Source of the DNA: Pseudogymnoascus verrucosus
Lineage: Eukaryota
Assembly (NCBI GenBank): GCA_001662655.1
Contig: KV460218.1
Reading direction: 5' to 3' (one strand)
Length of the DNA stretch: 64,000 nucleotides
The notes under the pieces: model-generated
Told to the model about the DNA's origin: nothing
Databases searched by the model: none
What the model saw: only the letters and a program-made list of their open reading frames with translations
Shown: piece by piece, positions 15,780-44,775 of the stretch
Position numbering within the stretch: the stretch's first letter is position 1
Layout: every line of letters starts with the position of its first letter
Translations under genes and position numbers: made by a program

Positions 15780-16774
15780 CTAATCAGAATACGCCCTACT
15801 CGCCCCTCTCAGAGCAGGAATGCGATATCGCATCAACATCGGCAATGCATCGAGTCTAATCTTCGAAACAAAAACTTCATCGCCCTCGATGGACATAACC
15901 TTGAATATTGTTCCAATCATCACAGCAGTCTGTACTGCCTCCCAATTCGCTTCCAAAGAATCACGAATTTCAGCCGGCGTGTCTTCAAGAAGCCCATCCC
16001 AAAACCCCCAATCAATAGCCTCAAATTCGGGGCGCTGGCGGAAGACTATGTCGATTATCTCTCCAGCCAGGAACTGAATACAGTAACACGCAACACCAAA
16101 TGGCTGAGGAGGAGGTGATAGTTCCCAGTCGATAACACCAGTAACTTCAGCGTTTTCTCCAACAAGAACATTCATCTCATTTAAATCGAGGTGCCCAAAG
16201 AATAGAGGGAGTTTTTTCAAAGCCGGAGCCTCCTCGATCAACTTGGAAATAAATGCGGAGAATGGCTTGACATCATCTCTTTCGAGGGCGAGAGCGCGAA
16301 TCTTGTGTAGATTGGGGATGATATCGGAGTCGACTACCTCGCCTGCGTTGCCTTCAACAAAACATCGAGCGAAGACACGACCTAGAGATTCGGAACAAGT
16401 AGCTCGCTGGGTTTCGTTCCATATATCTTCATACTCCATCCAAGGCTTTCCAGGAATACGGGTCATATAAAATGGCCATACTCCAGCTTCGACCAGTTCC
16501 AGGTCATGAGTAGCTTCAATCATGGGCACTATATCGCCGAGAAGATTGCGAGCATGGAAGAACGGCTCTACGTCTAGAGCTTCGATTCTGAATTGGATTA
16601 TGACATTCCGACCATCCTGGAGAAAGACCTCTAGTGTCTTACTAAAACATCCCTGGGTAGTCGTGAGCTGAGCCGATATTGCTTTGATTCCAAGGTGTTG
16701 CGATGCAAGCTCTTTTGCTTTGTTGATTTGCTTTCAGCGTTATTCAACGATGTAGGGAAATCGGAGTCTGACAT
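15780..16774 (-). pseudogene. APH/choline-kinase-like phosphotransferase with a 1-nt frameshift near 16732
   Basis: Motifs QGCFSKT, HLDLNEMNVLV and GVIDWE. The ATG at 16774 is out of frame with the domain ORF; adding one A to the A3 run (plus-strand T3 at 16732-16734) restores it. Confidence 0.7.
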
Positions 16775-17302
16775 AGTTTTTAAGTAATACTACTTGATAG
16801 AGACGTAAAATCATTATGCTGAACAACCAATATCATCATGTAGGACCCTTCCCCATCTTGCGTCCCGTTACTGGATTTACCCCGCTCCTAGCCTACCCGG
16901 TAGTACATCTGTTCTGGTCTAATCGTCAATTCAAAGTAACTATCACTGTAATTTCTATGTAAAGTTACTTATTCGCAAGGTACTATTAAAGCTGCATACT
17001 TTCGTCGCTAAAATTTGCAGTGTGGATATATTTAATTCGTCGATATAGTCAAGAGCCTTCATCGAAGAGGCTGAGCATTGTGAAGTAACGAGGCGGTATG
17101 TGTATGTGGGCTGAGCAAGGCGAGGCAGACTCGCCAGCCACAGTAGCACCGAATAATATGTTCATAAGTAAATGACTATACCCAGCTTCCCTACAGTCCT
17201 ATTTTCAAAGGGTCTTTTTCAGATTTTTTGGTTAAAAAGTCACTTGGTGTCCAATTTATCATACTATCCGTATCCGTTCAGTAACTCTTTAGATGGCCTG
17301 AA

Positions 17303-19086
17303 ATGGAACTTGGAACAGGATTGGCACTAGTAGCCTTTGCTGATCAATGTATCAAGTCAGTTACATGTAGCTACTAAAGATCCTTCCTAACCTATTTATA
17401 CTTCCCCTCATCACGTTGATTATATAAATTACTGTTCTAACCCTCCTGTACAGATACGGAACCAAACTAGTGAAACGATGCAAAAGTTATCGCCATGCAG
17501 TGGACGAGGCGAGGGCCTTTTTGGTCACAATCGAGCACAACTGGCGGAAGACCGAATCCCAAATCAAGTTCCTTAAATCAATCGCTACCACTTTAGACGA
17601 AGACTATCTCGAGATGCAATCGATCCTGTTATCTGAGCTAGAAGGCCAGCTAAAGACAGCGACGCTCACTTTAGACCAGCTGATTGAGAAAAGCAAGCGC
17701 GGGAAGTCGCGCACAGAGTCTAATATCATCGATCGCATGAAGAGTCTCGTAGTGATGACACCTGGCCAGAAGATCAAATATGCTTTCGAAAAGGGCACAC
17801 TACAGGACCTAGTCAATGGTCTTGAAAAGTGGCAGGGAAGATTCGATCCTTGCTGGATGCTGATAATGCGAATTGAATCCCGAAGCATCGACAACGAGCT
17901 GTCTCGGGAAACACAAAAACCCCCGGCTCAGCAGATTCCGTTCATTATGGCAGCAAAGGAGATGCGCGATGCTGTTCATGCGACTTTAGTGGAAAACCCT
18001 GCAGTCGAAGTTCCGATTTGGCTGGATGCGGACTCTTACCATTCATCTAACGATGTAATTGAGTTCTCTCCCATCTCAATTCATCTCTCAAAGTCGACTG
18101 GGAATAGTCTTATGATAGAGACAATGCGCTGCAACATCAGATCCGATATTGACAGGACCACGAAGGATGCTCGTGATCTTGCCCAAATCCTGCACAAGAT
18201 CAACTCCCCAAACTTCGGCCTACTCAAATGCCAAGGAATCATTAAAGAATCAGAGACTGTCACAGATCAGTTCGGACATCCTAAAGCTCTTCCAACCTTT
18301 TCATTCGTGTTTGAAATTCCCAAAGACTTTCGGAACCCGCGAACTCTCCGTGGCATTTTACAAGAAGCTGCTCCTTTCCCATTAAATGAGCGACTCGACC
18401 TCGCACGCCAGCTCACCTATTCAGTTCTGTATATCCACAGTGCCCGCTTCGTCCACAAGAGCATTCGGCCAGAAACGATTCTTGTGTTTGAGAATGAGAC
18501 GTCGAGTATTGGCGCGCCGTTCTTGGTTGGATTCGAGAAGTTTCGCCCTGCGGATGGACACACTTATTTGATTGGAGATGAGAGTTGGGAGAAGAATCTC
18601 TGTATGTTCTAAGCATCCTTTAATATCGTACGGCAAGTACTGACAGAATCTATAGACCGCCATCCAACACGCCAAGGTATTTTGCCCGAAGAGCAGTATA
18701 AGATGCAGCATGATGTATATAGCATTGGCGTAGTGCTTTTGGAGATTGGTCTTTGGACTTCACTTGTCACTTACCCTCAAATCTCAAGTCCGAACACGGA
18801 AGGTAACATTCCGGTCGCTTCGGAATATGTTAACCTCGTGTCGCCAGGCAAAGAGAAAGATCCTCGCCTGCGAGCATTTCGAGATAAAGAGATGTTAGAA
18901 AATCTCGCTGAGCGTGAACTGCCTCATAGACTTGGGAGAAAGTATACTGATATGGTATTGCTATGTCTGCGGTCTCTAGATAACCTAGAGACTGGTATTC
19001 CGGGCGGCGTGGATAAAGATGGAATAGGAATTGGCGTAAGTTTCGTTGAAACAGTGTTAGAATTAATACATGGGATTTCTCTTTGA
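17303..19086 (+). CDS. HeLo-like N-terminal helical domain + pseudokinase (543 aa; exons 17303-17355, 17454-18601, 18656-19086)
   Basis: N-terminus MELGTGLALVAFADQCIKYG resembles HeLo/HELL N-terminal helices. The kinase-like lobe has HKSIRPETIL in place of HRDLKxxN, GFEKFR in place of DFG, then YRHP and DVYSIGVVLLEIGLW. The splice sites restore the frame. Confidence 0.8.
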
Positions 19087-19547
19087 TTTGCTGAGAGATC
19101 GAGCGAGAGGTAGAGACACTAAGACACCGAGATACTGATTTCATAGCAGAGAGGCTAGGAGATTACGAGAGAAGCATAGACGCGGGGAGACACAGGGAGA
19201 GGCAGAGAGACTCAGACATCGAGGGGGAGAGAGAGGAACTGAGAAGCCAAGATACTAAAAGAGAGGGACGGAGGAATTAAGAGACCGAGGGACGGACTGA
19301 GAGGCAGAGGGTCTAAGAAATTGAGAGAGAGGCTGAGATGCTAAGAAATTAAGGGATACGTATAGAGATTGAGCGCGAGGCAGGGAGAGAGAGAGAGAAT
19401 AGAGGATTAAGAGAGGGAGGAGTAGATGTTCTACGAATATGTGATTTATAGCTTTAATTTTGCGTAATAACAATGGAGGAGTAACTGCAGTCTTTCGTCA
19501 TTAATGATTGCGTTTAATACATTGTGTTACTTCTCTTAACTCCTTAG

Positions 19548-22014
19548 TTACCCAACGCTTCGTTTTGCATCCTCTAGTGTCGGTTCATAAGATGCCAACA
19601 ATGGTTTGGTATCCTTCAATGCCTTAGCCTGAATTTGCCGCTGTTTCGCCGGGTCCTTTGTAAGGATCGGAAGTAGATCCCCTGGAATCGGGGCGTGAAG
19701 GTTGAAACTCTTAGAGAATGCTATCAAGTCGCCGAGCTTTACTTCTCGAGCTTTCCTAGCTTTCTCTAATCTGGTGGCTTCAGCTTCCTGTTTGATATGC
19801 AGCTTAAATTTTTCAAAAGCAGTAAGAGACGCCTTTGTTTTTGCTCCGGTGTCTGCTGTACCTAACGGATTTTCGTTTCTCTCGGGGGTATCCTTAGTCG
19901 GCAGATCACTCACTGGCCCGAGAACCGTAAAAGGATTCACTTCTACAACCGGAAGTTTCGCAGTAGAATTCTCGTACAGCTCTTTCGCTTTCTTTGCCTT
20001 TCGTTTAGCAGACTTGCTTAGCGGAGCATCCTCTATGCCTGCATTTGATTTCTCCGGAGCCCCGTAGCTGTTAGACCTTCCGTGAGAGGTCACTTGAGAA
20101 ACTGTAGGTGCGATTAAAGCGCTCGGTTTGACAATTAGACCACCGGAAACAGTATTGACTGGAGCTTCTGAGGCATGGGTAGAGGTGGCTGAGCGATAAA
20201 TATCCGGACGATTTAGTCCATGGCCGGCATCGCCTAGTGGCTTTGCCGATGGCAGCTTAACAATGTCACCTTCTGGATTCCTGATGATAATTGCTGCGCT
20301 CCTAGGGGTTGTGCGTTGGAAAGGGCTACGGGGAGCCACAGCCTTTGCCTGGGGAGTTTGGTGAATTACGGACGCTGGGATTGAAGGAGTTCGGGGCTGG
20401 CCTAGGTTGGAGTTTGGCCTTTCGGACATTTGCGGAGGAGTGAGTCCGGTTGCGGCTACATTAGCCCATGTTTGCCTAGGAGAATTTTCTTGTAAAAATC
20501 TCTCACTTTCCTTCCACACTTTCTCAATACTTTCTGCGAATTTAGGCGAGGATATATGTTCGTCCACTTGTCCTTCCTTCACTGGCATATCTCTAGTGAA
20601 CGTCTTGAATGTAGACTTGTCAGATTGCACATAGCCATCCGCATACAAGGGCGGAGCTAAGTCCGCAACTATCCTCTGAGTAGAGTTGTCGAGGCTCTCG
20701 TCGATATTTGTGCCATCTAAATGATTCGAGGTAGCTATGCCTGCAGCCAGAGATGGTTGACTTGTTTCCTTTGTAGTATGTAGTGGGATGGGCCTAAGAC
20801 TGGAGGGCGAGCCATGGCTGCTAATACTTTGGGTTGCTGATATGCTTTGCAAGCCAGCATGGGTCACAGTATCGTATCCCTCAGTGTTAAGAGTAGATTC
20901 CCAAGTAGTTCGTTGCCCGTAGTCACTAAAAGGAACTAGACCAGACGTGGAATTTAGATTTAAGCCTAGAAGCCAGTTAACAAATATACCAACAAATCCA
21001 TTCCTCACTTACCAATCTGCATCCAAGGATGGTCTAAAGCTTGCTGGGCATTCAGTCTATCCCGCGGAATTGGCGCAAGTAGACTTTGAATAAACTCTAT
21101 GCCAGATTGGTCCAATTGAAGAGACTGATACAGGAATCCCGATGGGTTTTCACAGAATTTATACAAGGAAGGGCCAGGTGGAAACGGGACAACTCCACTT
21201 CCCAGCCGATAGACGATGCATCCCAGTGCCCATAGATCTACGGCAGTTGTATATGCAGACTTGTGAGGGTCTTCTCGAGGCACGTAATCTAATATCTCAG
21301 GCGCCATGTATGATTCCGTGCCTGTTTGTGTCCGGTATGCGGTTTCCTCGGTGCGTCTTTTAGTTAATCCAAAATCGGCAAGCTTGACCCACCACTGGGG
21401 ACCCGTTCTACATACTAAAACATTCTAGGGAGATATCAGCACGTGTATCATGAGAATGTTAGCTAGTCGGTTACCTTGGGCTTTAGATCTCGGTGAACGA
21501 AAGATTCCGAGTGCATGATCTTCAGACCTTCTAAGATTTGAAAGGTGATGAGCCTGATTTCTGGTTCCACTAATTGTCCAGGCCTAGAGGGCACATTGTG
21601 CTCAAGGTCACCTAGGGGAATGTATTCCATAGCCAAGTATACGCTGTCAGAATCCTCGAACCAGCCTAAGAATTCCACAAACACGGCCGCCTCTTTGTAT
21701 TTCAATTTCGAGAACTCCACTAGAGCCTCAAGCTCCCTTTGATATTCCCTTTTCAGTGTCGATCCGCTTGTCCACAGACGCTTCACTGCCCTCTGCTCGC
21801 TCCCCTCCATGAGAACCTCCAAACGAATTTCGCCAAACGCGCCCTTCCCAATGATTCGCTCAACCCTCCATACTTTTTGTTTCGGGACACGTCTCTGACC
21901 AGATACCAGGTCGGATACCAAATGTGTCTCTACAACAAGGTTTGCTTCCCGGATAACTTGTGCGTTGATCTTCGTGTGGTCGAATTGAGAGAGATGGGAG
22001 AGATGGGAGGACAT
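19548..22014 (-). CDS. Ser/Thr protein kinase with long disordered C-terminal tail ending in a Pbp1/ataxin-2-like segment (789 aa; exons 22014-21475, 21424-21013, 20965-19548)
   Basis: Complete catalytic motif set: GKGAFG, AVK, HRDLKPKN, DFG, YMAPE, DLWALG. Both introns are GT-AG and keep the frame. Confidence 0.88.
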
Positions 22015-24173: not shown

Positions 24174-24973
24174 TCACGCGAAGTTAACCTTGTTGAGCGT
24201 GTTTCCAAAGCTCTCCCCCTGGATAGTTGCGATTTCTAATTCCAGGGGCGTTGGCTGTCTGGATCCATCGGATGCCTGGTAAGCGCCACACATGTCAGTT
24301 TAATCCTCATCATGGCGCAGATAGCATAGTTCCTTACCGCGAAAGTTCCAGCTCCCCAAGGAGAGCCTCCGTGAACCTCGGTCAGTCTCGAGATCTGCTC
24401 AAAGGCAGTCTTGTATCCGAGAGGGACGTAGACGATGCCGTGGTGTGCAAGCGTAGACATGGCGGAAATCACAGTGCTCTCCTGCCCACCGCCAGGTCCG
24501 GCAGTAGAGACGAAGACACCCGCATACTTGCCCCACAGAGCTCCGGATGCCCATAGTCCGCCGGTGGCATCCCAGAAGCTCTTCCACTGCCCCGGGAAGT
24601 TTCCGTAACGAGTTGGGATACCAATCAAGAACGCATCATAAGTCGCGAGAATTTCGGGGGTGATAATTGGGACATTTGGTTTAGCAGGAGCGTACATCTT
24701 CGTAAGCACCTCTTGTGGCAGGGTCTCTGGAACTCTATGGGGAAGATGCGGTAAGCATGTGGTACTGTACCAGGGATATGACTTTGTCCTTACTGATATA
24801 AATCGGCAACAATGCCAGCTTTCTTGAGACCTTCCTGCTCGGCAACCGCCAGCGTGTGGACGTGCCCATACATAGAGTACTAGAAACGAGGAAGATGTCA
24901 ATTCATGTCGTCATATCAGAACTGGGAGGCGGCGGTGGGAACGTACGAAGACAATTGCTACTTTAGGCGCCAT
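24174..24973 (-). CDS. Flavodoxin-like NAD(P)H:quinone oxidoreductase (WrbA/Pst2/Ycp4 family), multi-exon
   Basis: [53 protein letters not shown]. Confidence 0.92.
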
Positions 24974-25701
24974 TTTGATATCGGTTGTGGTGGAGATGGG
25001 GATCGTTGTGTGTTTTTATTTATTGTTGACTAGGCGGGATGATGGTATAGTGGAGGATATGCATAGGAAGGTGGGATGCGACGGCATTATATACTAATTC
25101 CCCCTCCATGGGATAATGTGGGGCACGACAACAAAAACAACAAAAACGAGTATACCTAAGTTCAACCCACTGAGGTGCTTGCCGCTCCAGTATCGTATAA
25201 TGAGTTGTGCGTTAGGTCCTTTGTAAGTGATTACAAGATTATATATCGTGGATTGCACATCATCAGTCAGCCTCTTTCCGTCTGCCCCACCTTACATAAT
25301 GCCAAACGGTGATGACTGAACCTACAGTACAACGGAGTCAGGGCCAAAAGTAGTTCGTATGGGTCTGTGCTCAAATTTCAGTAAACGAGTGTCTTTTTGT
25401 ATGGGAAAAAGCACAGACCCGTACGTATACTTATGGCGCCGTACTGTAAGTACCCTACACAGCCGCCGGAACGTCGTTGCCTTCCGGCGCTGAGGTATCC
25501 AGAAACGCAGACGTGGAGGCACCGTACCTGGTACCACCCGAACCAAAAGTCATTTCTCAAAAATCATTAATAAGAAATCTCATAGGCCCAGTTAATCCAA
25601 ACTATGTCTTTGGGTCTTTCAATTAAATTTTTTATTAACATAAGTAGTTATACTAAGCAACAGTAATCAACACGAAAAAAACCCCTCCTTAGCAATCAAT
25701 T

Positions 25702-26857
25702 ATGGATCCTACAGAGGTAAACGTCCCAGATGTCAAGGACATGAATATCGATAACATCACCCAAAACACCATCCTCATAAACTCCCAATGCGAAAGCGAG
25801 CGAGTCAAATATCTCTTCGAGCGCCTCGTCACGCATCTCCACGACTTTGCCCGCGAGACTAGGCTTAGTACACAAGAATGGAAAGCCGCCCTCGACTTCC
25901 TCGTTACCGTCGGGCAGATCAGCAGCGATGACCGACATGTAAATCCTTTTCCCAATCTTCGTTTTCTTTGGCAGAATGCAACCTAACACAGCAACTCAGG
26001 AATTCATCCTTCTCTCCGACATCCTCGGCCTCTCTCTCCTCGTTGACGCAATCGACCACCCTAAGCCCCCCTCCAGCACTGAAGGTTCCGTCCTCGGGCC
26101 ATTCCACAGCCATAAAGCCGAGGTCGTCCCCTCCGGCAGCGACATCTCGTCTGACCCCAAAGGCAGGCCCTGCCTTGTGCTCTGCACCATCAAAGACCCG
26201 TCCGGGGCGCCGATCGAGGGCGTCAAAATCGACATCTGGGAGACGGACAGCAGCGGGCACTACGATGTACAGTATGCGGAGCACGATCGCCCCGATGGGC
26301 GCTGTGTCATGACGAGCGATGAGGAAGGCAGATTCTGGTTCAACGCGATCGTGCCGGTCAGCTATCCGATTCCGCATGATGGGCCAGTAGGAAAGTTGCT
26401 CAAGCTCCTGAAAAGACATCCGTGGAGGCCGGCGCACATGCATTTTATGTTCGAAAAGGAGGGTTGGGATCATTTGATTACGTGAGTCTGGTCCGCTTTC
26501 TATCACTCCTTCACGTTGTCGCTGAGAGACGGACGCGAGAATTCTCAATTATAGCGTGGGCTGATCTTCTATATATGTAGGGCATTATATATCCACCCAG
26601 ACCCCTATCTCACATCGGACGCCGTCTTCGGGGTGAAGGACTCCCTGATCGAAAGTCTTGGAAGTGTCTCCGCGGAGCAGGCAAAGGCGTACGGAGTTCG
26701 AGAAGGCACGGCGCTGATATCGCGTGATTTCGTACTGGTGTCGGACGACGAGACGCAGCGGTTGAGGGATAGCAATGCACTAGCGGCGATGGCGGATTTG
26801 TTTCCAGGTAAGAAGATCAAGTTGCTTGATCATTTACCTGTGCCTGATCTCGATTGA
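25702..26857 (+). CDS. Intradiol ring-cleavage dioxygenase, hydroxyquinol 1,2-dioxygenase type; two introns
   Basis: EFILLSDILG, TEGSVLGPF, GHYDVQY, YPIPHDGPVG, WRPAHMHF, YLTSDAVFGVK (Tyr/Tyr/His/His iron ligands). Confidence 0.92.
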
Positions 26858-28058
26858 GCCGTATCATCTTTGTCGGCGTTACGCTCATAAACATCCTATC
26901 AAGATAACTCTAAGCAACTGTCCATAATCAATGTGATAACTGCCCATATATCATCCGTAGATCGAGCGCGTTGTCATCCAAATCTACGTAAATCATGAAC
27001 ACTCACCTCGCCACCCCCCATCCACAAACACATCCACGCAAGACATTTCCTCAACGGCCATACTACCCCCCTCTTGACATCTCCCTCACACCCATCCCAT
27101 AGCGCGTGCTAGCAACCCCGCTTCTCTGCCCGTGGGCGTTCAGCCACGGCGCGTTCAGCCACCCGGTTTCGCGGGGTGCCCGGAAGCATTCAGGCAGCAT
27201 CCCAGCATTTATTGACGCCGGACGTGCTCCTGACAGGACCGTGCCATATGTCCGGACTCCGACTTTGGAGCTCAATCCCGGCGCTGGCATGGCTGATGCG
27301 ATAGGTCGTTAATTCCACTCCGCAATGAGTGCGGGGATGGCTGATGGATGCTATATGCTAGGACTAAGCAAAAAAACGCCGTCTAGTTGTGGGGAGGGCG
27401 GGCATGCTAGTACCGGAGGAAGTTCACTGTGTAATGATACGGCTATGGTGTACGAGTCTGGGAGTTACGCCATGGAGCAAGAGTGCTCTGCTGCTTGCCT
27501 ACGGCTTGCTATCTGCGCCTCGTCGCTAATCGCCGCATGGCTCTGTGGCGGAGAAGTATGGGCGATGTACCACTGTTGAATATGTTTAGAGACACCATCG
27601 CTGTTACCGCGGGATGCAAGCCTTTTTTATCAGAGCCTCCTTTCTTTTAACGGACTTGTACGACACGACGACAATAATTGCACTATAGCCTATACATTAT
27701 TTGTATCGCGTATTTCTTACTCAAATCAACCATGGTACTTGTGATAGGTGGCGGCATCGCAAGTACTCACACCCTAGAGGAGAGTGAGGGATAAGGGAAT
27801 GTAACAGCGAGCGAATGTCTCCCTTCAGCCCATAAATTCCGGATTATAAGTCTGATTATAAATCTCTGTCATTTTGTTGAGATGATTAATAAAATTTCCA
27901 ATTATACACATGCTCTGAATCTCTAACAAATAAAGACACTTTCTGTTTGGTGGCTATTATCCACCATTAAATCCGCTCACACTATATGTCAAGTCTCGGG
28001 AAAAGATGTAAATTCAACAACCTAAGTAGCCTCATCAATAATACACTCAAATATTCCT

Positions 28059-29897
28059 CTAACTCGTCTTAAAGTGTGGTTGCCCAGCCCAAGCCCGCAG
28101 CTCCTTTCCATATCGTTGCAGGATTAATATGATGATGAATCCCGCAGCGCAGATACCGGCTTGAGTGCCGAAAGATTTCCTGGTGCCTTGTTCGTTGGCC
28201 CAGGTGACCTTTTTTACAATTAGTTTTTGGAACTGAAAGCGAGAATTCGCGTCATACGTACCTGGAAGTATGAAATAATAAAGCCACCCGCAGTACGTGC
28301 AAAGTTGACCCATGATGCGACTTCTCCCGAGGCCTGGAAAGAGATGTTAGCGCCTGAAAAGGAATTGTAGGAATGGTTTGCCGTCTCACCTCGGGATACG
28401 AGTCTAGGTTGTAAGCATTGACACCGACAGTGGCGATCATAACGCCAAAAACATACAGTCCCCATCCAACAGAGGTCACCATATAGTGATATTTCTCTTC
28501 CAAGCAAAATCCGAGAAGGACCAAACCCGCAATAATGAATGGCGTGCTAACCCAGATAACATTGAGGCGAGCCTCGGGCTCAAAAATACCATGGTTGCGT
28601 TTCATCGACAGGCGAGCGACGAAATCATGAAGCCAATGCCCGGCCAATTCCCCGAGAAGAGCGGCGACAACGGGAGTGAAGTAAAAAAAACCTGTGGTGA
28701 TCAGCAATGCAGACGGAAGGAACCCAAGACTGCGCTTACCAATCTGCTTAGGTCCAAAGCTGTACAATGGAGTCAAGAAGATTGAGAGCGTGGTGTTAAT
28801 TCCGACAACCCAGGCAAATGTAAGCATGTAGTAAACGACGGTCAAAAATACCGGCAGCTTGCTGATGGCAATGAAAGGTCGTAGGAGAGCTTGGGTGATG
28901 GTGTTGCGATGCCTACGACCCTTCCATTGAGCGATGCCGAGCATGCGGCTGACGTGAGAGCCGCGCGCCGGTTGCGCGTCTATAGGAATTCGGCGATCGT
29001 AGTATGTTTCGTCCGCGAATATCATGATCAAAATGAGGCAGAGGCCAGTCATTATAGTATAAAGACCGAATGCCCATTGCCATTTGACGGTATCAATTAT
29101 GAACGCTGTGAACATGGGTCCGAAGTAAGGCGAGAGAATGATGAATGCGGACCAGATGTTGATTTTTCGGGCGTGCTCATGGAAGAAGTACATGTCCTTA
29201 ATGAACATGAGCCCACCACCTTGCGCTACTGTTGAGAAGAAGCCATTGAGGATACGAGCGGCCATGAAGGAAGGAAAGGTCGTTGCTGCTGCACACCAGG
29301 CTGCAGTTCCTACAGCCAAGGCGATAAAGTAGAAGAGAACCGGATATCTTCCAAAGTATGCAGAGAGAGCAACTGCTACCACGCCACCAGCGCCGAGCAT
29401 GAACACGTTGCCTACTTGAGAGTGGTTGATCTCGTCTGGAGTCATACCCCAGGCTCTGAGCATACCGTTAGGATCAGCATGTGGACAAGTAACTGTCAAA
29501 ACAGGATGGCAATTGCTTACGCAGCTTGCGGCAAGAGAGTGACAGCACCAACGGCAGATCCAAAATCTGGCAGGAAAGCTACACAAAGTCAGTACCGTGA
29601 ACTAAAACCTCACTAGCGAATACTGGTCATACCAGTACAAGATATCACAAAGAGAATAACGTTCTTCTTTGTCTGACTCCAGTTTAATGGATCATTGGGG
29701 TCATCGCTAGGTTGGGGGACGAGGGTTGTACGGCCATCAGAGCTGGTTTTGAGATGCCCGGTGTCAACGTGGCCGAGCTCAGGGTTGAGAACGTAGCCCT
29801 CAAGCTCACCGAGCTTATCTAGGTCGACGACAGTTTCAACATGGTTGGTCAATTTCTCATCTACACTATGACCAAAGTCCTTTCCGTTGTAGGACAT
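28059..29897 (-). CDS. MFS transporter, multi-exon
   Basis: PQPSDDPNDPLNWS, YFGRYPV, MAARILNGFFS, EPEARL, many hydrophobic helices. Confidence 0.9.
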
Positions 29898-31129
29898 AGC
29901 GGTGATATGGGATCGTCTCTCGTTTCTAGAAATTGGATGCGCTGCGTCGATGAAGGACGAGGGGGGAAATTGGACAAGATTAAAGCACAGATGCTTAAAG
30001 GGAAAAGGGGAAGAATGTTGATGACTTTCTGGGGTTTCCTCAGATGCGTTTGGAAGAATGAGTCGAAGAGCGAGGAGGAATGGATCTCATATTTTAGAGA
30101 TCCGGAAGGCATGGGGCCCCACACTACACTTCTGATAGTTAATGCGGGGGACCCGGCTAGCTTGAGATATTTACGTAGCTTGTCTCGAAGCACATGGTTA
30201 CCCCGCAAGTGTGGAGGAGAAGTGCGCACTAATTGACGCTGCAGGCTATATCATAGTTTATCAAATGAGAATTACATGTAAGTTAGTGGGTTAATAATAA
30301 TCGATCCGTGTAAGAGTATTGTAGGAAGGTCCGTTAACGGATTCGATGTATCTCTTTGCTCCAACGCCTCCTTTCCTTGCATTTAGGTCACCTGTCGTGT
30401 AAAGTAAGTTTGTACGTATACCAAAGTAGAATGAATTCTAAATCAATTGTGCCGCTGTGTGTCGAAGTTGCTTGCATAGCATGGTTCGAGAGCGTGCCCG
30501 TATAGAGTTTATTAGTCATCTGTTTGATCTGGGTACTTACATCATTACCTAGAGTTGTGCCTGTCTGTCCGGAAGGCATCCATTGTCTAACTGTTGCGGG
30601 GATCACTACCGGCAGCGCTAGACACCCCTGCCGGCCGATTGAAGCCCCGTCTCCAAAATCGTCAAAACTCGCAGCCACTAGCCAACCGGACAAATGAGCC
30701 ACAAAATGCGAAAGATGGAGACGCCGAAGAGGTAACCACGGAGTACGAATGCATAGGAAAGGCTTGACTAGAAGGACTGATGGCTGGGCCGGGATCGCAA
30801 CGGTGTAAACTGCCGATTGACGGAGGAGACAGCGTCGAGAAGGAAGGCCTGACCGCAACATCTACCTGCACATCCGGAAAGAGCATATACACGACGGGCC
30901 ATGGGTCATCGACCCCTCAGTTTCCCGGATGTCTGCTTTGCAACTTTCCGGGGAACTGTGGGGGTCTCAAATTCACAGGTCAGCCATGACAAAGCGCGTC
31001 GCGCATAGGAGCTGTTAAAGATCTCGCCAACAACTAATCTTATTTATTTTTTGACGAATCAACCTTCCTTTTGCTGGCCTTGCTGTTCTCATATTGTAAC
31101 CCTTCTATTAAACTCTGCAAAATCCTACA

Positions 31130-33387
31130 ATGCCAGTCTTCACTGAGACATCAAGCTCATGGCGCGATCTTCGCATTTTGCCATCCTTTGCACCTCCCCT
31201 TCCTCGGCTGACCCCGCCGTTAGTAAGAAATGTAGTCGAGGAAGCAGAAAGATACGAAGTTGTTGTGATCGGAGTAAGTCAAAAGCTGACGATGTGTCGT
31301 GGCAGCTGGACTGACGCAACCAACCCCTAGGCAGGACCAGCAGGCCTATTTCTCACTACTTTACTCGCCCGTTATGGACTGTCTGACGAGTCTATGATCT
31401 GCTTCGATTCCAAACCTGGAACCTTGAAAGCTGGTCAAGCTGATGGTCTCCAACCGCGCACACTCGAGGTCTTTCAAAGTCTCAATCTCGCAACCGAAAT
31501 ATTAACAGAGAGCTGTCATATGACAGAGGTAGCTTTCTGGAACCCCAAAAGCAATTCAGCCGACGCTCCGACAAATGGATCCAACGGTGCCAAAGCAACC
31601 GAATCTGGCAGTAGAGGCATTGAGCGGACCTCGTTTGTACCAGACGTTGTGGTTGATGCAAGATTCAAGCATGAAATAACCATTCACCAAGGGCGCATTG
31701 AGCGGATATTGGATGAGAACCTTCACCGATACTCGAAACGGGGAATTATTCGCTCTACCGACTTCGAGCATTTTGAAATTGACGCAGCTTCTGATCCAGA
31801 GTACCCCGTCAAGATCACGCTTAGTTCCCCGATAGATGGAGCAAATAAAGGTTCCAACGCAGCGGGCCGGACTGTCCGATCCAAGTATCTGGTGGGAGCA
31901 GATGGTGCACATTCGCGCGTCCGTAAATGCATGGGCTTGAAACTTGAAGGGGAGACAACAGACCATATTTGGGGAGTATTAGACTTCGTCTGCGACACAG
32001 ACTTCCCCGACGTTCGAAAACGTTGCGCGATCCATTCTGATGCAGGATCCATTATGATCATCCCGCGGGAAAGAATAGCCACTGGCGAGTATCTCACTCG
32101 GCTTTATGTACAAATCAAGGAACAGATACCGACAGACGTCAATGAGAATGTGGAAGCCGAAGAAGCTCACAGGGCCAGCGCGAAACAACGTCGTTCTGCT
32201 ATAACCTATCAGTCTATTCTGTCGCAGGCCGAGAAAGTCATGTACCCATACAAGATTGGCGTGAAGGCTGGTACTGAACCAGATTGGTTTGCTGCGTACC
32301 AAATTGGTCAGCGAATGACACCAGAATTTACCATGAAAGATGCCGAGGGTATTGAGCGGGTATTCATTGTCGGTGATGGTAAGCTGCAGTTGCCATAAAT
32401 CTACATCATACCCATTCGGCTAATAATTTGCAAGCTTGCCACACACACAGTCCAAAAGCTGGCCAAGGCATGAATGTCTCTATGATGGACTCCTACAATC
32501 TGTCATGGAAGCTCGTACACAGCATCAACGGGCTCTCACCAAAGACGGTGAATCAGTCCGATCCAGTTCTCTCCACATTTGGCGAAGAACGCTTGACTAC
32601 AGCCAGACATCTCATTGATTTTGACACCAAGTTTTCCTCTATGTTCTCTGGCCAGATTTCTGAAGTGGGGGAGGCTACAGTGGCTGGAGGCCTGACACAC
32701 GATGACTTTCTTAAGATATTCCTGGATGGAAGTGGCTTCACAAGTGGCTGCGGTATTGAGTACCAAGAAAGCCGACTGGTGAGGAGCCCCTGCATGACTG
32801 AGGCGGGGAAAACTTTGATAGCAGGCACAGATTTCCTAGGAGGCACATTGAAGGCTGGAAGACGAGTCAACGACAGCATAGTGACGAGATTTGCGGATGC
32901 AAATCCCCGGCATCTCCAAGATGGTGAGTGCAAATATATCAATTCCATTATGTTTCCTTTCATAGCAACTAACGAAACGCTAGAACTTTCATCGATCGGA
33001 CGATACCGCATCCTTGTCTTCACAGCGCGAGACCTCGCATGTACTGGAAGCTCATCAGCAGATTGCCTCGTTCAATTATGCGACTCCATCATGCATCAAT
33101 ACCCTGCAGGAGTATTAGAGCTTCTCATCCTGTATCCTCCGCGCGAGAATCGATTCGAATGGGTTGACCTTCCCAAGTGCGTGAAACGAGATGCAGAAAT
33201 GAGAACTTTTGGTGCCAATGAGGAGGTGTATAACAAGTACGGCGTAGACACGACAAGGGGAGCCGTAGTTGTGGTTAGGCCAGATGGCTATGTGGGAACT
33301 ATATGCGCAATCGAGGATGGTGAGGGGCTTACGAGTTACCTGGATGACTGTCTTGTGCGCGTGGAAAAGACAAATGCGAGTGCATAA
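31130..33387 (+). CDS. FAD-dependent phenol 2-monooxygenase-like hydroxylase, multi-exon
   Basis: VVIG|[49 protein letters not shown], C-terminal VVRPDGYVG. Confidence 0.93.
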
Positions 33388-34070
33388 GGGAACAAAGCGC
33401 ATGACTGTATCACTGATTAGTTAGCATTGCGATTGGATAGGCGAATAATACATATTTTTCGATTAACTCAGCATTGACGTGAAAGCTGTCGGTTTGTATT
33501 AACAGCCTGGCTCCGCAGCGGTTTCCAACACAAATTGTGTAGGGAATTCAATGGTATCCCACCAGCTGGCGGTCCGCCAGCTAGACTGACGAAATTCCCA
33601 GGGGTTTTGGGTAGGCCCCTAGAACTCCTGAAATAATACGTAGGCCCATTAGATCGTATAGTAATCTAATTGATTCGTTTTATATACTCTACGGTGCTAT
33701 ATACCGTGACCGTTGTAGAGCCGCCGATCCGACTGCCGAAGTGTGAATTACTAGTCACAGGAGTACACTGGTCATATGCTCACGTGACCTCAGCGGGGCG
33801 ACTGAAATTTTGCGTGCTCTGTCAGTGCTTACAATTGGCGTTTCGCTGTGACCTGCTACCTCCACAGTTCAGTCCCACCCGTTCAAGCATGACAATTTCC
33901 TCATTAATCGTTTCATCAAGGGTTAAAACTCGCCTGTTCATTAACCTACTAATCATACTTTAGCTATCCTTTTGCTATCGATGCCTATCACTCACCAGCG
34001 AAACGACTTCATGTGACGTGCCACCCTATCAGAATCTACGACACTGCCCTGCATCTGGCTCCTGAGCACA

Positions 34071-37000
34071 ATGGAGACCACCTCTGCCTGTAATAATCAC
34101 TCGTTTCTTTGCCATTTCTCAGCAGTTCATCAGGCTGACGGGTTAAATAGCTCCTCCGCAGAATCGTAGGTCCCAGGCACGTGTGCCGCAAGCATGCCAA
34201 ATGTGCAAAATAAAAAAAACAAAGGCACGCTCAACCGGTCTATATGATGCGAATCCCTTCATGAATCAAGATTGTGGGCTGATCAGCTCATTACGTATAG
34301 TGTGGTCAGACTGTACCCTGTAAAAACTGTGAATGTATGCAGAGAGTTCTTTACAGCTTCTACGCCGGCTCAGCGACCACGGTAAGGTCGTCGGGTCGTG
34401 TATTCGCATTCGAAATTCTCTTTTGTTAAGATTTCAAGTGTTGTGCTAAGAGATGCGTAGCCCATGGCTGGACTTGTATCTACGAGAAGAAGAATCGAGG
34501 CAGTCTATCAGCGCATGGTACGAAGCGAAGCCAGGGTCAGAAGGCCGCGCTTGCAACGGACTCAGAAACTCCAGATCTAGCAGTTTTACAAGAAGTATCA
34601 GGAGCTCCAAGAGCCCAGAGTCTTTTATCTAAATCAGCAACCTTCAGCACTGCAGAATCGGGAGAAAGTATATTCTATGAAGACAACACGCCACCTGTAT
34701 CGTATACCTCACTCCGAGACAGAGAAAAAGAGCGAGACGGTAAGGCACTCTCAAGTTTAGGGGGTTAGTCTGCGCTGTGGTGGGGGATGTCGTGACGAAT
34801 CTAACTCTAGTGTAGAAGATCTTGAAACTGTCTCCGGCGAAAATTCGCAAGAGAGCGAGCCTTTACGCGATGTCAATCAGCACACGACGGGTAGAGAATA
34901 CTATGGGCGCTCGTCAAACTTCGCCCTTCTCGGACAACTGTTTGCCCATGCGCGCTCAAAGTTGTCTGCCAGTAGGAATTCCGTGCCGTGTCAACAGTCA
35001 GAATTGTTAGCAACTGCGGCTACCTCAGAAGGACCTATCCGTAACTCTGGACTCGATCCCCATCGTCCGGCAGGAGAGAGTCAGACGACCAACAAAAGTC
35101 CACTGGGAGCTGATAGGTTGTCTATCGTCAACCTACTCTACGATGATGAAACATCTGTCAGTGAACCAAATTCAAAGCTCCTCGTTGCTACGCATAAAGC
35201 AAACGTTCGACCAGACACTGCTGCTTATGTACACAGTCACCCCCAAAATAGAGATACAGATTCAAATGAATTCGCAACTACGGATGATTTTCACACTGCC
35301 AGGTTGGCAAACAAGACAGAACGAGTCGCCCCTGTTCACCCTTACAGGAGAGGGACTTTCCCAACTAATCAAGCAAGCGATAATTACGGACGAAGTCGTA
35401 CCGAGTTGGCAATAGAGAAGGAATACTTGAGAATCTTCTTCACCAATTTGTATTATATTCATCCTTTTCTTTCTCAAACGCAGTTTGAGGCACGTTGCGA
35501 AACAACGATCTGGTCACGATGGCCTTTGACGGAAATAGCCCGAGGCGACTTACATTTCGTCGCACTCTACAACGTTATTCTGGCTGTTGGTTCACTCATA
35601 GGAAGTCAGGACACATTTATGGGCCATAGGAAGCAGCTAGATCATGATCTCGGTGCTAGTCATAGTGATATGTCAACCGCTACCTCGTCTATCCAGCTTT
35701 CGAGGATCTTTCTGGATAGATCAAAAAGGTTACTTGGGGATTGCTTTGAAGTCTGCTCTTTAGAAAGCGCCCAAACACTGATGTTAATGGTAAGTCATCA
35801 CTTAGAGCTCAGCTATCTCGAACGAGAAGTTACTGATTCGAGTTTCGCTGTGGCAGTCACTGTATTGGCAGAATGCCTTGAAGCCTCATGCTTGTTATAT
35901 GTATAGTGGGATGGCTGTACGTACGGCTCTTGCCATAGGATTACCGGATGCATCGATGCCTCAATCGGTTGAATGGCGAAACTCCGCGAGAAAAACTTGG
36001 TGGTGAGTTAATTATGATCCTAACAACATTGTCCGAATGCCAAACCTCCCTGCGTCAAGCAGTACTGACAAGTTTACCTCTCGTGTAGGGCAATCTATTC
36101 TCAAGAAGTGTAAGGTTATGCCGTGTGTGTAATGGGGGGTTTTTTTTTCACAGCTGACAAGTATGTTCAAAGTGATATGTGTTGTTCCTCTGGACGAATG
36201 AGCAGTCTGTTGGATCCATCAAGCTATGATATTTCCTTCCCTGAGATCAGTGTATGCTATTCCAATTCAGCTCTATCTGAATATCGCATAAACTGACCAT
36301 GTGGGCGAGTTTAAGGGCACATCAAACTCCGCTAAAACCGACACTGAAGCAAACCACGTCGCCATCATTCCAGAAATGGTTAAATTTGCAGCGCTTCTGT
36401 TAAGAGCATCGAAAGAGATATATCATGAGGCAAAGCATCTATCCATGCTAGAAAAATCGAAGATTGCGTTTGACCTGGATTCATGCTTTACAGAATGGAG
36501 AAACAACCTTCCTTCATGGCTCGGTCCTGGTTCGAATGCTCTAAAAGAGCCTGAATGGGTTGGCAAACAAAAGCTTGTCTTAGAACTCCGTAAGCCCCTC
36601 ATCTATGCACAGTAAATGGTAGTAAATTAACGTATCTCGCAGGATATCAAAATGCCAAAATACTGCTGCATCGGCCATTCGTAGCTGCATCTGACGTTCA
36701 ACAGTCCCTTGGCTTCGGCGCCAACGTCGAAGCCTGCCTCACCGCCGCCCGTCGCACAATCAGCCTTCTCTATGAGTCCTACCTCCACCGCCACTACTTC
36801 CGTTCGTGGCGCTACAACACCACCTACACGATCTACGCCGCCACAATCATCCTATACCTGATCCTGCTCGACTACAGTGTCGTCTCCACTGAAGACCTGC
36901 TCGCTGACGTCCAGAAATCCCTCGACATCCTAGCCTCTATGGACGAGGCACGCGTTGCACGCCGCTGCTTCGACCTCATCCAGGAACTGCTGGAATTTAC

Positions 37001-37298
37001 ACAGAGCCACGTTCGGCAGCGCCAGCGGCTTGAGCGCCAGGATACCCGTCATGCGCAATATCCGCTTTCCATGCAGGATCCTGTGCCTAGATTTGAGATG
37101 GACAGAAGTGTAGAGGCGAATCAGGGGTTCTTAAGTCCCGCGCAATCGAATATGGATGGTGCTACTTGGGCGATGAATCCTTCGATGAGCGGGATATGGG
37201 CGAGCATGATGGATCCCATAGCTCTGGAGGGCTTTGTAGTCGGCGACGAACCGATTGAGGGGATGGTGTATGATAACTCTTGGTTTGGGGCGATGTGA
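34071..37298 (+). CDS. Zn(II)2Cys6 transcription factor with fungal-specific TF domain, many introns (start codon inferred)
   Basis: Spliced zinc cluster ACQMCKIKKTK|CGQTVPCKNCE|SHGWTC; middle region YYGRSSNF, FFTNLYYIHPF, CYMYSGMAVRTALAIGL, LLHRPF. Confidence 0.85.
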
Positions 37299-38284
37299 TG
37301 TGATGCAATAGGCAATTGGAGCAAGGCAGAGAGTACTAGTCGTTCCTTTCCCGTTCGCTGTCGGCCAAGTGACACAAATAAGTAGTCTGATTTATGATCT
37401 ACTGGAAACCTAGCTTTGGAAAATTGAATCAAATTTCCGAGTTCACACGGAGGCATTCCCCTTTGGTACGCACCCACCCTGCCTGATAATATTATCAACG
37501 AGTCCCTAGCAGTTATATATCGTCTCTGACCTTCCTCACCAGCAATCGAAACAACCAGCGTGCTCCCCTCGACTCCCACAACTCCAACTGTTACGAGGCA
37601 CTGCGACTACAATCGTCTGATTTTATTGCTCAAGAACTCACCCATCACGCAGCGGTTTCTCATTTTCAGAGGCGAATCCGTCTTTGCGCAAAGTTCACTA
37701 CTTATAGGTACTTGAGTGGGAACCGGATAGCGGCCCCTCATTGTCATCCTTTGATGAAAGAAGTTCGATAAATGTAGTAGTATCATGCGATACAATAGAA
37801 TCGCAAGCATGGCAACAAGTTTGTTGGTAGCGCCCTATGTGTGTGTAGGTTTAGCAAAGTCATACGAATGCATAACAATAAGTTATTATAGATATAGGCC
37901 GTCTCGGTGCAGCGGTGGCTTTGTGACTATCCAATTGTTGCCGATGACGTTGTGATGCCGGAATGACGGATCACTTTGTTTCGGAAGGTCTGGGTGGAAT
38001 TGCCATTGCTGCGGAGTGGTAGCGAATGCCTTCCGGGCGGGGTTCAGTGTTGGAGTAGCTGCCTTCCGGCCGGAAGGGGCCGGTCCCGGCATCTTGGAAA
38101 TCTTCCCGGCCAATGCATAGGGTTACTCTGTAAACTCTGGTAGAAGATCACAAGACTAACCAGTCTTCATTTGTTAGAAGCACGATTTATCTTCTTTTAT
38201 CTTCTTCTAGTTTCTTCTTTTCTTTTCTTCTTTTCTTCTTTTCCTTTATCCTTATTTTGAAATGAGAATAGTCTCCTCGGCATC

Positions 38285-39417
38285 ATGAGTGTCATGCAAA
38301 ACTTCACCTACAATGCCTCCCCTGTCCGGGTTGTCTTTGGTAGCGGTACTGTCAAGCAGCTCTCTGCGGAAATCTCCCGTCAGAAGCTGACTGCACCTCT
38401 GCTTGTCTCGACTCCAGGACAAGTCAATGAAGCAGAAACCTTGAAGACAAATCTTGATGGCAAGATCGCCGGCATCTTCACTGAGGCGACGATGCACACG
38501 CCGACAAACGTCACCGACAAGGCGGTTGAATTTGCAAAGTCCGTAAAGGCAGACGCTGTTGTGTCGATCGGAGGTGGAAGTACAATCGGACTTGGAAAGG
38601 CTATCAGTATTCGTACTGGTTTGCCTCATATCTGTATACCGACAACGTATGCTGGGTCAGAAATGACTCCGATTTTGGGCGAGACGGCAGATGGACAGAA
38701 GAAGACTAGGAACGATCCTAAAATTCTCCCAGGCACTGTCATCTACGATGTCGACTTCACCATGACTCTGCCGGTAGCACTGAGTGCCACGAGTGGTGTG
38801 AATGCAATTGCGCACTCAGGTAAGCTCCTGTAGTGCCTGTCCATGTATAGTCTTGCTAACAGATTTTAGTGGAAGCGCTTTATGCTCAGAATACCAACCC
38901 CATTATCAACCTTCTTGCCCTTGAGGGCATTAAGGCTCTCGCGGAGTCCCTCCCCATTATCGCAAAGTTGCCCTCGGATGTTGCTGCCCGCACAACAGCC
39001 CAATATGGAGCTTGGCTCTGTGGCATGTGTCTCGGATCAGTTGGAATGGCCCTCCACCATAAAATCTGCCACACCATTGGAGGATCATTTAATATGCCCC
39101 ATGCGGAAACCCACACGATCATGCTGCCTCACGTTCTAGCATATAATTCCCCAATGATCCCCGACGTAATGAAAAAGCTAGCCGACGTGTTCCCCGAGAG
39201 CAACGGCGATGCCGTCCATGGTCTCAACGTTCTCCTAACAAAGCTCGAGGTCAAACGGGGACTGAAAGACTTCGGATTTAAGGAGGAAGATATTGACAAG
39301 GCTGCAGATATTGCGGTTAGCCACCCTTATTACAATCCACGACCAGTTGAGAGACATTCAGTCCGAGAACTTATTCGAAGGGCGTGGGCTGGAGAGGAAG
39401 CTAAAGCAGATCTATAA
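38285..39417 (+). CDS. Maleylacetate reductase (iron-containing alcohol dehydrogenase family); one intron near 38820-38869
   Basis: RVVFGSG, MHTP, IGGGSTIGLGKA, PTTYAGSEMT, LHHKICH, HAETHT. Confidence 0.93.
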
Positions 39418-43219: not shown

Positions 43220-44775
43220 GGTGTTGTCGTGTGCCGTTGCGTCGATGGGTTTGGAGCTGATTCAAGAACTATGTTGGGGTAGTTTAGGAGGTGGTAGCAA
43301 GTTGTTGATGGATGAGAGACCGAGAAACGAATAGTCACGGCCTTGCATCTCGTAAGCCAACAAGGAGGGAATGGGAATGGAAATGGAAATAGAAATGGAA
43401 CTGGAAATGGGAACGGATTGGGAACGGATACTTATACTTATAGTGGAGTAATTGCATGTATCTACGTCAGTTGCTGGCGATAGGAGTATGTGTATCGGCC
43501 CGTGCTCGATCCACGATGCTGCTTTATCTTATCTAATACTTTGTACTACACATTTGCTCCAATTACAGCGTCGCTTTTAGCTATCAAGTAATCTCCCATG
43601 TAACTATATACCATTCTAGCTAACGGGGGGTATAGTTAGTATTAGGAGCGTTAATTAAGTTAAGGTGTTGCTTATATACTTCAACTTTTAAATGCGCCTA
43701 TAAGCTTTCAATTGGATTTAAATCAAGACTATAAGGTAGCCAATTAATAACATCAATTCTATGCTCATGTAGCCATGCGTTTATAATTCGACATAATGGA
43801 TCTCCTTGTAATCGTCGGAACCAACTGTTCGCTCCGCTCAAGTATTCGAGCTCGTGTTTCAACACTTAATTCAAGACCCCTAGGCATTGTTGAAGGTGTT
43901 CACAAAACAAACGATACGGCCGCGACAACTAAAGCAGCATTCATTTACTTCGTCTGAGCACAGGCCCGTACACATACTTTTGTCGCCCGTACTGTATCTT
44001 GGTGTACGCCGTACGAGGTAAGGGGTATAGGGGTGTAGAGTATGGGGTACGGGATGCGGGGTCCGGGGTGCGGGGTAAGAAGTACAAAGTACAAAGTACT
44101 CGTTACAAAGTAATAGGTGGTGTTATGTAGCACCGTCGAAACCCCCCAGAGTCCCAACGCACCGGTTGCCAATCAATCCACTACTACGAAACCAGCAGGT
44201 GCCACTGTTTGGGATTATAATATGACAGGGATTGCGGTGCGCGCTCGCTGCTATTCTGCATATGGTCTGGTGTCGAGCGCGGCAAGAGTTGCAATTGGCT
44301 CAAGCCAGCCACTAATGGGGCCCCTTAGCCCCTCGTAAAACGGGAACGAGCGTGGTATCGAGGGCGTGGGTGTCCACCTTTGATAGAGAAGCCTCCATAC
44401 TGTAGATCTCATAAATCAGTAACCCCGCTTGCCCATGCTGTATCGCAAGCGCTTGGGATTATGTAAGATTCTCTGACCATCGGACAGACGCTATCGCCAT
44501 CCATGCCCTTGAGTCAGTCAACTCCACACCATCACTCTCCAACAAGCCTACCTCCCCCGCATTCGAATCCACCACACGCTTGGATCTCTTGTTCTTCGGC
44601 CCCCGTCTCCTTCGGCGGTTGCCGATGGCCCAACTGCATTTTTGTCTCTTTGTCTGACTTTAGATGCCGTGGTTTGTCGCAAGGATTATGACCTAGACTC
44701 ACCGGACGATACTCTAGTTCCAGCATACCTTGTGAAAGAGGTCTGCGAGCATTCGACTCTACCCATCAGCACAAC

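Follow-up and report, generated by a model that had tools for sequence, protein, structure and literature searches.

The stretch of DNA analysed here (the window) comprises 64,000 nt of contig KV460218.1 from Pseudogymnoascus verrucosus (assembly GCA_001662655.1). At positions 17303-22014 it harbours two kinase-fold genes, termed A and B, that are arranged tail to tail with 461 bp between their stop codons. An earlier note, made from the letters alone, had described them as a convergent pair about 460 bp apart, consisting of a HeLo-type pseudokinase gene (A) and an active kinase gene (B), and had likened them to the RIPK3-MLKL cell-death module; its coordinates and its description of the arrangement were correct. 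Both gene models were built by hand from the sequence. An overview of the features is given in Table 1.

Table 1. Features of the A/B locus and of its surroundings in the window
Feature	Position	Strand	Description
Gene A	17303-19086	+	3 exons, 543 aa, GT..AG introns
A exon 1	17303-17355	+	residues 1-18, hydrophobic start of helix 1; GT donor at 17356; matches P0004 residues 1-18
A intron 1	17356-17453	+	
A exon 2	17454-18601	+	remaining four-helix bundle (predicted), linker helices, most of the pseudokinase domain; open frame 17428-18612
A exon 3	18656-19086	+	pseudokinase C-lobe and stop; splice T|AC restores 'NLYRHP', conserved across the family
A N-terminal domain	17303-17991	+	residues 1-197, intron 1 included
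A pseudokinase domain	17992-19083	+	residues about 198-543, intron 2 included
HKS replacing HRD (A)	18454-18462	+	catalytic loop FVHKSIRPE; catalytic aspartate lost
GFE replacing DFG (A)	18529-18537	+	VGFEKFR; second catalytic aspartate absent
Thr388 (A)	18562-18564	+	activation segment; candidate phospho-acceptor, putative role
Spacer	19087-19547		between the two stop codons, 461 bp, GA/CT-rich
Gene B	22014-19548	-	3 exons, 789 aa
B exon 1	22014-21475	-	N-terminal extension, N-lobe, HRDLKPK; Pfam Pkinase E 2.7e-20; 98% identical to P0068 residues 1-180
B exon 2	21424-21013	-	N of HRDLKPKN, DFG, APE, C-lobe; Pfam Pkinase E 9.7e-24
B exon 3	20965-19548	-	C-terminal tail of low complexity (about 470 aa) and stop; reading frame continued by the predicted splice G|GC
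HRD (B)	21495-21487	-	
DFG (B)	21376-21368	-	
Segment of the B tail	20237-20438		raised depth in contigs of related strains
Short upstream frame	17293-17301		ATG GCC TGA
APH-family phosphotransferase	15783-16733	-	other neighbour of A
Probable aromatic-compound breakdown cluster	24239-39414 and 44692-46748		
FMN reductase			breakdown cluster
Catechol dioxygenase	25943-26482		breakdown cluster
MFS transporter	28255-29601		breakdown cluster
Phenol hydroxylase	31331-33384		breakdown cluster
Iron alcohol dehydrogenase	38261-39414		breakdown cluster
Zn2Cys6 regulator	44692-46748		breakdown cluster

The model of gene A is backed by full-length homologues. P0004 and others terminate in '...QGISI/L' as the window does, and a tblastn search of P0004 against the window gives matches over residues 1-18 and 18-533. 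Among database proteins, A is best matched by a hypothetical protein from Pseudogymnoascus sp. 24MN13 (P0001, Leotiomycetes; 98% identity, the same value being found for exon 2), and the intron position after 'CIK' recurs in relatives. For gene B, the modelled length is exactly that of the annotated protein P0068 (98% identical). The contigs of a related strain (X5) span both genes in unchanged order. The annotated C-terminus of P0001 (VE04_07538, residues about 487-534) is Gly/Arg/Glu-rich, unlike that of all other homologues, and its predicted local distance difference test score (pLDDT) is below 50 from residue 492. It is probably mis-spliced, with a wrongly predicted intron running into the GA-rich spacer. 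A three-codon frame is found upstream of A, 10 bases before its start codon.

The C-terminal half of A adopts a kinase fold, as confirmed by structure comparison (Foldseek, and VIA-align on its Foldseek hits), and both catalytic aspartates are replaced, as the earlier note had read. In the A family, the HRDxK motif is found in 0/210 members. The catalytic loops that were found (143 among the 210) are mostly of the HKN (113) or HKS (23) type, together 136/143. The glycine of the DFG-equivalent column is kept in 66/66 rows, and GFE occurs 77 times among 137 motifs. Because HRDxK is absent from all 210 members and the loops are mostly HKN or HKS, A is classified from its motifs as a true pseudokinase with a family-wide loss of the catalytic residues. 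The position of Thr388 in the activation segment is occupied by Thr or Ser in 65/66 rows of alignment A1 and in 91/95 rows of alignment A3, a conservation that would be expected of a phospho-acceptor and that is not proof of one. Weak matches to Pfam DUF7580 (PF24476) are limited to the kinase-like part of A. They occur in 12 of 16 homologues at E ≤ 1, all 12 under the family cut-off of 27 bits, and in 28 of 117 further members. A Foldseek search with the whole A model returned a list filled by kinases and is uninformative with respect to full-length MLKL, which was not among the matches listed.

The N-terminal domain of A begins with the hydrophobic residues MELGTGLALVAFADQCIK, and the first 17-20 residues are hydrophobic and Gly/Ala-rich throughout the A family. 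In the AlphaFold model of the 98%-identical P0001, the N-terminal helices comprise residues 3-31, 33-64, 67-96, 109-117 (short) and 121-157, followed by two linker helices (161-171 and 180-194) and then the kinase fold; the pLDDT of blocks within residues 1-197 is mostly 77-95. The bundle of four long helices is a predicted fold, seen in the models. The domain was also folded separately from a 32%-identical relative (L052:9621-10205), based on an alignment of 34 domains from the loci and the window, with a pLDDT of 85.5. This relative was chosen because the domain-only search needed an intron-free copy. When residues 1-200 of P0001 were compared with the ESM Atlas, HeLo clusters were found first (0.95, 187 of 256 features). 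The L052 domain likewise retrieved three HeLo clusters first (0.96/190, 0.94/172 and 0.91/156), followed by clusters of PigL_N and SesA, which are the other HeLo-like N-terminal domains of fungal NOD-like receptors (NLRs). This likeness, seen with two queries that are 32% identical to each other, is to be read as a lead and not as an alignment.

The predicted bundle aligns with the N-terminal domain of MLKL, but the fold scores are within the range of any helical bundle. A Foldseek search of the N-terminal model against the PDB gave no match at E ≤ 0.001, and the HeLo domain of HET-s was not among the best 50 structure matches listed for this model, which is not evidence either way. A search of 1.84 billion representatives with the domain profile retrieved 711 representative clusters at E ≤ 0.001, 529 at 1e-10 and 186 at 1e-30. 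The best 150 profile matches listed all belong to the same family, and no bridge to annotated HeLo proteins is visible among them. The family is large and is without a Pfam model of its own, and hence constitutes an annotation gap. Taken together, the N-terminus of A is quite probably a bundle of the HeLo superfamily, for which the support is good but indirect. The corresponding proposal of the earlier note has been borne out in part: the ESM Atlas clusters and the predicted helical bundle speak for it, whereas a Pfam HeLo match is missing and the fold scores are generic.

Gene B contains all catalytic motifs of a live kinase (GKGAFG, AVK, HRDLKPKN, DFG and APE), in agreement with the earlier description, and is by these motifs an active eukaryotic protein kinase. 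Among kinases of solved structure, B is most closely related to Rad53 (E 3.3e-33), CHK2, DAPK-related and CAMK kinases. Because of these relatives, B is assigned, by sequence, to the CAMK-group serine/threonine kinases and not to the RIP kinases. A candidate RIP homotypic interaction motif (RHIM), the sequence 'MQIG' where the kinase domain ends, is not conserved in P0069-P0071 and was taken as chance. The tail of B gives no Pfam family at E ≤ 0.01 and is wholly different among homologues; compared with P0068 from a sister species, it is 89% identical versus 94-98% for the kinase part. In some relatives from other fungi, the B-clade kinase domain has, in place of such a tail, WD40 (P0075, P0229, P0319, P0336), ankyrin (P0309, P0325) or TPR (P0324) repeats fused to it, with no NACHT or NB-ARC domain among the fusions listed. 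A passage in PMC12881547 describes these types of repeat in fungal immune-type sensors. The variable tail and the repeats suggest that B is the sensing part of the pair. One segment of the tail (Table 1) shows raised depth and loose ends in the contigs of related strains (X5, X18), as if a similar piece were present elsewhere in the genomes of those strains.

To characterize the conservation of the pairing, metagenome contigs were scanned with the A alignment and B-like kinases were located by tblastn of P0068. The 80 A loci found were reduced to 69 non-redundant loci by collapsing A copies that are at least 90% identical, and a B-like neighbour was defined as a match that scores 80 bits or more and lies no further than 3 kb from the A homologue. 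A B-like kinase is present in 36 loci and missing from 4 despite ample flanks; the flanks of the other 29 are too short. Accordingly, the pairing is found in 36/40 informative loci, and adjacent locus tags show it in three named species, which belong to two fungal classes other than that of the window (three classes in all). How often homologues of A neighbour B-clade kinases had been set in advance as a test by the earlier note, and the outcome is in favour of the pairing.

The near flanks (0-3 kb) contain 36 matches in 253.5 kb, the far flanks (3-10 kb) 1 match in 309.5 kb. As a control for linkage, the other neighbour of A, the APH-type phosphotransferase, was found in 0/80 loci, by which it is also ruled out as a member of the module. 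The pairing exceeds chance. Chance adjacency of two unrelated kinase-fold genes, which could be argued only from the many kinases that fungal genomes hold, is refuted by these two controls and by the adjacent locus tags in the three named species, and is given practically no probability. Among the neighbour kinases, HRD is visible in 32/36 and DFG or DLG in 34/36; the 4 without visible HRD and the 2 without DFG/DLG are explained by truncated contigs or by matches ending at the intron. The tblastn alignment with the neighbour kinase is interrupted at residue 179-181 in 19 loci, where gene B of the window has its intron. The divergence of A from the window pair correlates with that of the neighbour kinase (Spearman 0.75, n=34, two loci with truncated B dropped). 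This correlation fits inheritance as a unit, and relatedness alone contributes to it.

Gene order is variable: 23 pairs are head-to-head (455-957 bp between matches), 8 are in tandem as A-B, 2 in tandem as B-A and 3 tail-to-tail. The tail-to-tail loci (L001, L035, L057) are among the closest relatives of the window. The prevalence of head-to-head pairs (23/36), with the spacing expected of a shared promoter, is what would be seen if the genes were kept together by shared regulation or descent, without direct interaction of the proteins. However, the pair survives in tandem (10 loci) and convergent (3 loci and the window) orders, in which no promoter is shared, it persists across three classes, and both products are kinase-fold proteins, one dead and one live. 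Such an explanation is therefore considered very improbable.

Intron 1 of A, which follows 'CIK/CLK' at residue 18, occupies this position also in the distant loci L002, L006, L012, L025, L028, L040 and L041, and is absent from one subgroup (L052, L060, L062, L067, L071, L073, L075, L078). In two further loci, L008:9689-12429 and L009:8617-11375, A is nearly the same (95% DNA identity) and the contigs diverge about 300 bp upstream of A. At that point L008 has a B-like kinase, and L009 has DNA that is found downstream in L008, with no B. The difference reflects a presence/absence rearrangement or else a chimeric assembly.

An MLKL-type logic is suggested by the combination of a dead kinase domain with a conserved hydroxyl, a HeLo-like bundle and a live kinase that adjoins them through several rearrangements. 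We give an even chance to the reading that A and B represent one instance of an ancient module of filamentous ascomycetes, made up of two genetically linked genes, that operates by MLKL-type phosphorylation. A is built like MLKL, with a predicted, probably HeLo-like four-helix bundle and its hydrophobic first helix, two linker helices and a dead kinase domain. B would be switched on via its tail or the repeats of its relatives, would bind A and would phosphorylate the conserved Thr/Ser of the A activation segment (Thr388). The bundle would thereby be freed, oligomerise and attack the membrane, and regulated cell death or a related membrane response would follow. A complex prediction for the pseudokinase domain of A and the kinase domain of B gave a score of 0.00; it was run without controls and says nothing on binding.

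Several observations weigh against this module. For the N-terminal domain, Pfam HeLo (PF14479) matches 0/16 full-length A homologues at E ≤ 1 and is not among the 25 families listed (of 72) for the 117 further A members, and the HeLo-like family PF17111 matches 1/117 of these, at an E of 0.029 only. The profile of this domain retrieved no MLKL or HET-s chain from the PDB sequences at E ≤ 10; its sole match was a globin (E 0.83), dismissed as chance. As to the kinase, a conserved RHIM-like motif was not seen by eye in B and three homologues (P0068-P0071), and the exon of the B tail rests on a predicted splice and on automatic annotation. With respect to linkage, the loci L011, L027, L030 and L067 are without a B-like kinase although each flank extends for 3 kb or more. 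The A homologue and the B-like kinase listed for Thelonectria olida and for Mollisiaceae sp. are on contigs of different length, and 8/15 named species with an A homologue had no B-like kinase among the 120 matches listed, in a search restricted by protein length and shared words. Finally, the genes converge in the window and hence share no promoter there.

The linkage and the dead and live status of the kinases fit equally well with a non-lethal pair, in which the pseudokinase A would act on B as a scaffold or an allosteric partner and the bundle would serve for oligomerisation or membrane anchoring in stress or developmental signalling. The missing Pfam HeLo match and the generic fold scores of the bundle are also in keeping with it. 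In contrast, two members as distant as 32% identity both retrieve HeLo clusters first, ahead of other domains found at the N-terminus of fungal NLRs, a hydrophobic first helix rich in Gly and Ala is retained throughout the family, and kinases of the B clade occur as fusions to WD40, ankyrin and TPR repeats. A passage in PMC12881547 presents such repeats as typical of fungal immune-type sensors. A non-lethal role of this kind is rather unlikely, though it carries more weight than the other alternatives.

The order of signalling could also be reversed, with A acting upstream, as a sensor or adaptor that would bind B and activate it, whereupon B would phosphorylate other targets. Pseudokinases are often allosteric activators, and the direction of signalling is not fixed by the present data. 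Yet the usual sensor parts, namely the variable tail and the repeat fusions, sit on the side of B, and A, although non-catalytic, retains the Thr/Ser of the activation segment almost throughout (65/66 and 91/95 rows). Overall, reversal appears improbable, and the phosphorylation of A by B remains the preferred direction.

Compared with RIPK3-MLKL of vertebrates, the fungal pair has the domain order of A (bundle and dead kinase) and the intact kinase neighbour in its favour, and to this extent the resemblance proposed earlier stands. It does not extend to the kinase, since B is on the Rad53/CHK2/CAMK side and is not a RIP (tyrosine kinase-like) kinase, with no RHIM seen. The likeness to RIPK3 is an analogy only, because the nearest solved relatives of B are Rad53, CHK2 and CAMK kinases. 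Further differences are that the two fungal genes are physically linked and that A is without a sequence-level match to MLKL.

The fungal HeLo-type effectors known so far are activated by NLRs through amyloid templating. With HET-S/HELLP effectors, which combine a HeLo or HeLo-like domain with an amyloid motif under the control of a neighbouring NLR, A shares the HeLo-like character according to language-model features, the hydrophobic first helix and the organisation as a two-gene cluster. Such clusters are common in fungal death pathways, as stated in a passage of PMC12881547. In contrast to these effectors, A has no amyloid motif and no Pfam HeLo match, its C-terminus is a pseudokinase, its partner is a kinase and no NLR is nearby.

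Fungal proteins with a 'HELL domain with kinase/pseudokinase domain' are mentioned in one sentence of a figure legend in PMC12881547, by which the domain order is already in print. No neighbouring active kinase or conserved gene pair is mentioned in the passages concerned, and the proteins meant there may belong to the same family as A. Plant MLKLs (Arabidopsis MLKL1-3 and wheat Pm13) consist, in the passages on them (10.1101/681015, PMC10951266), of a HeLo-type bundle and a kinase-like domain with a role in immunity. They belong to another kingdom, and those passages describe no dedicated neighbouring kinase. Passages in PMC9815663 deal with MLKL-like N-termini of NLRs and not with kinase fusions. 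Full-text literature searches, supplements excluded, did not retrieve a gene pair of the A/B type.

To our knowledge, vertebrates are the only organisms in which a dedicated kinase has been established as the trigger of MLKL-type death. New in the present pair are the combination of an MLKL-type architecture with a new kind of partner kinase and the physical linkage of the two; the mechanism that we infer from it is plausible. A widespread necroptosis-like pathway of filamentous ascomycetes without NLR or amyloid, in which a CAMK-type sensor kinase with a variable tail or with WD40, ankyrin or TPR repeats directly phosphorylates a linked MLKL-like executioner, is a tentative extension that may well not hold; the switch would then have arisen on two occasions or would long predate the animals. 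A phosphorylation-triggered fungal death switch is a testable idea. The conserved linkage of an MLKL-like pseudokinase and a live kinase in three fungal classes provides a concrete, easily cloned two-gene system, with which membrane attack under the control of phosphorylation could be looked for outside animals and the evolution of such switches examined.

In the remainder of the window, 113 other open reading frames of at least 110 aa were scanned. None of them matched a Pfam family for NLR, HET or other death domains at E ≤ 1e-5, consistent with the earlier observation that no NLR is nearby. The phosphotransferase next to A (Pfam E 2.2e-6) represents a third kinase-like fold within 7 kb. Beyond gene B, the window contains a probable cluster for the breakdown of aromatic compounds, the genes of which are listed in Table 1.

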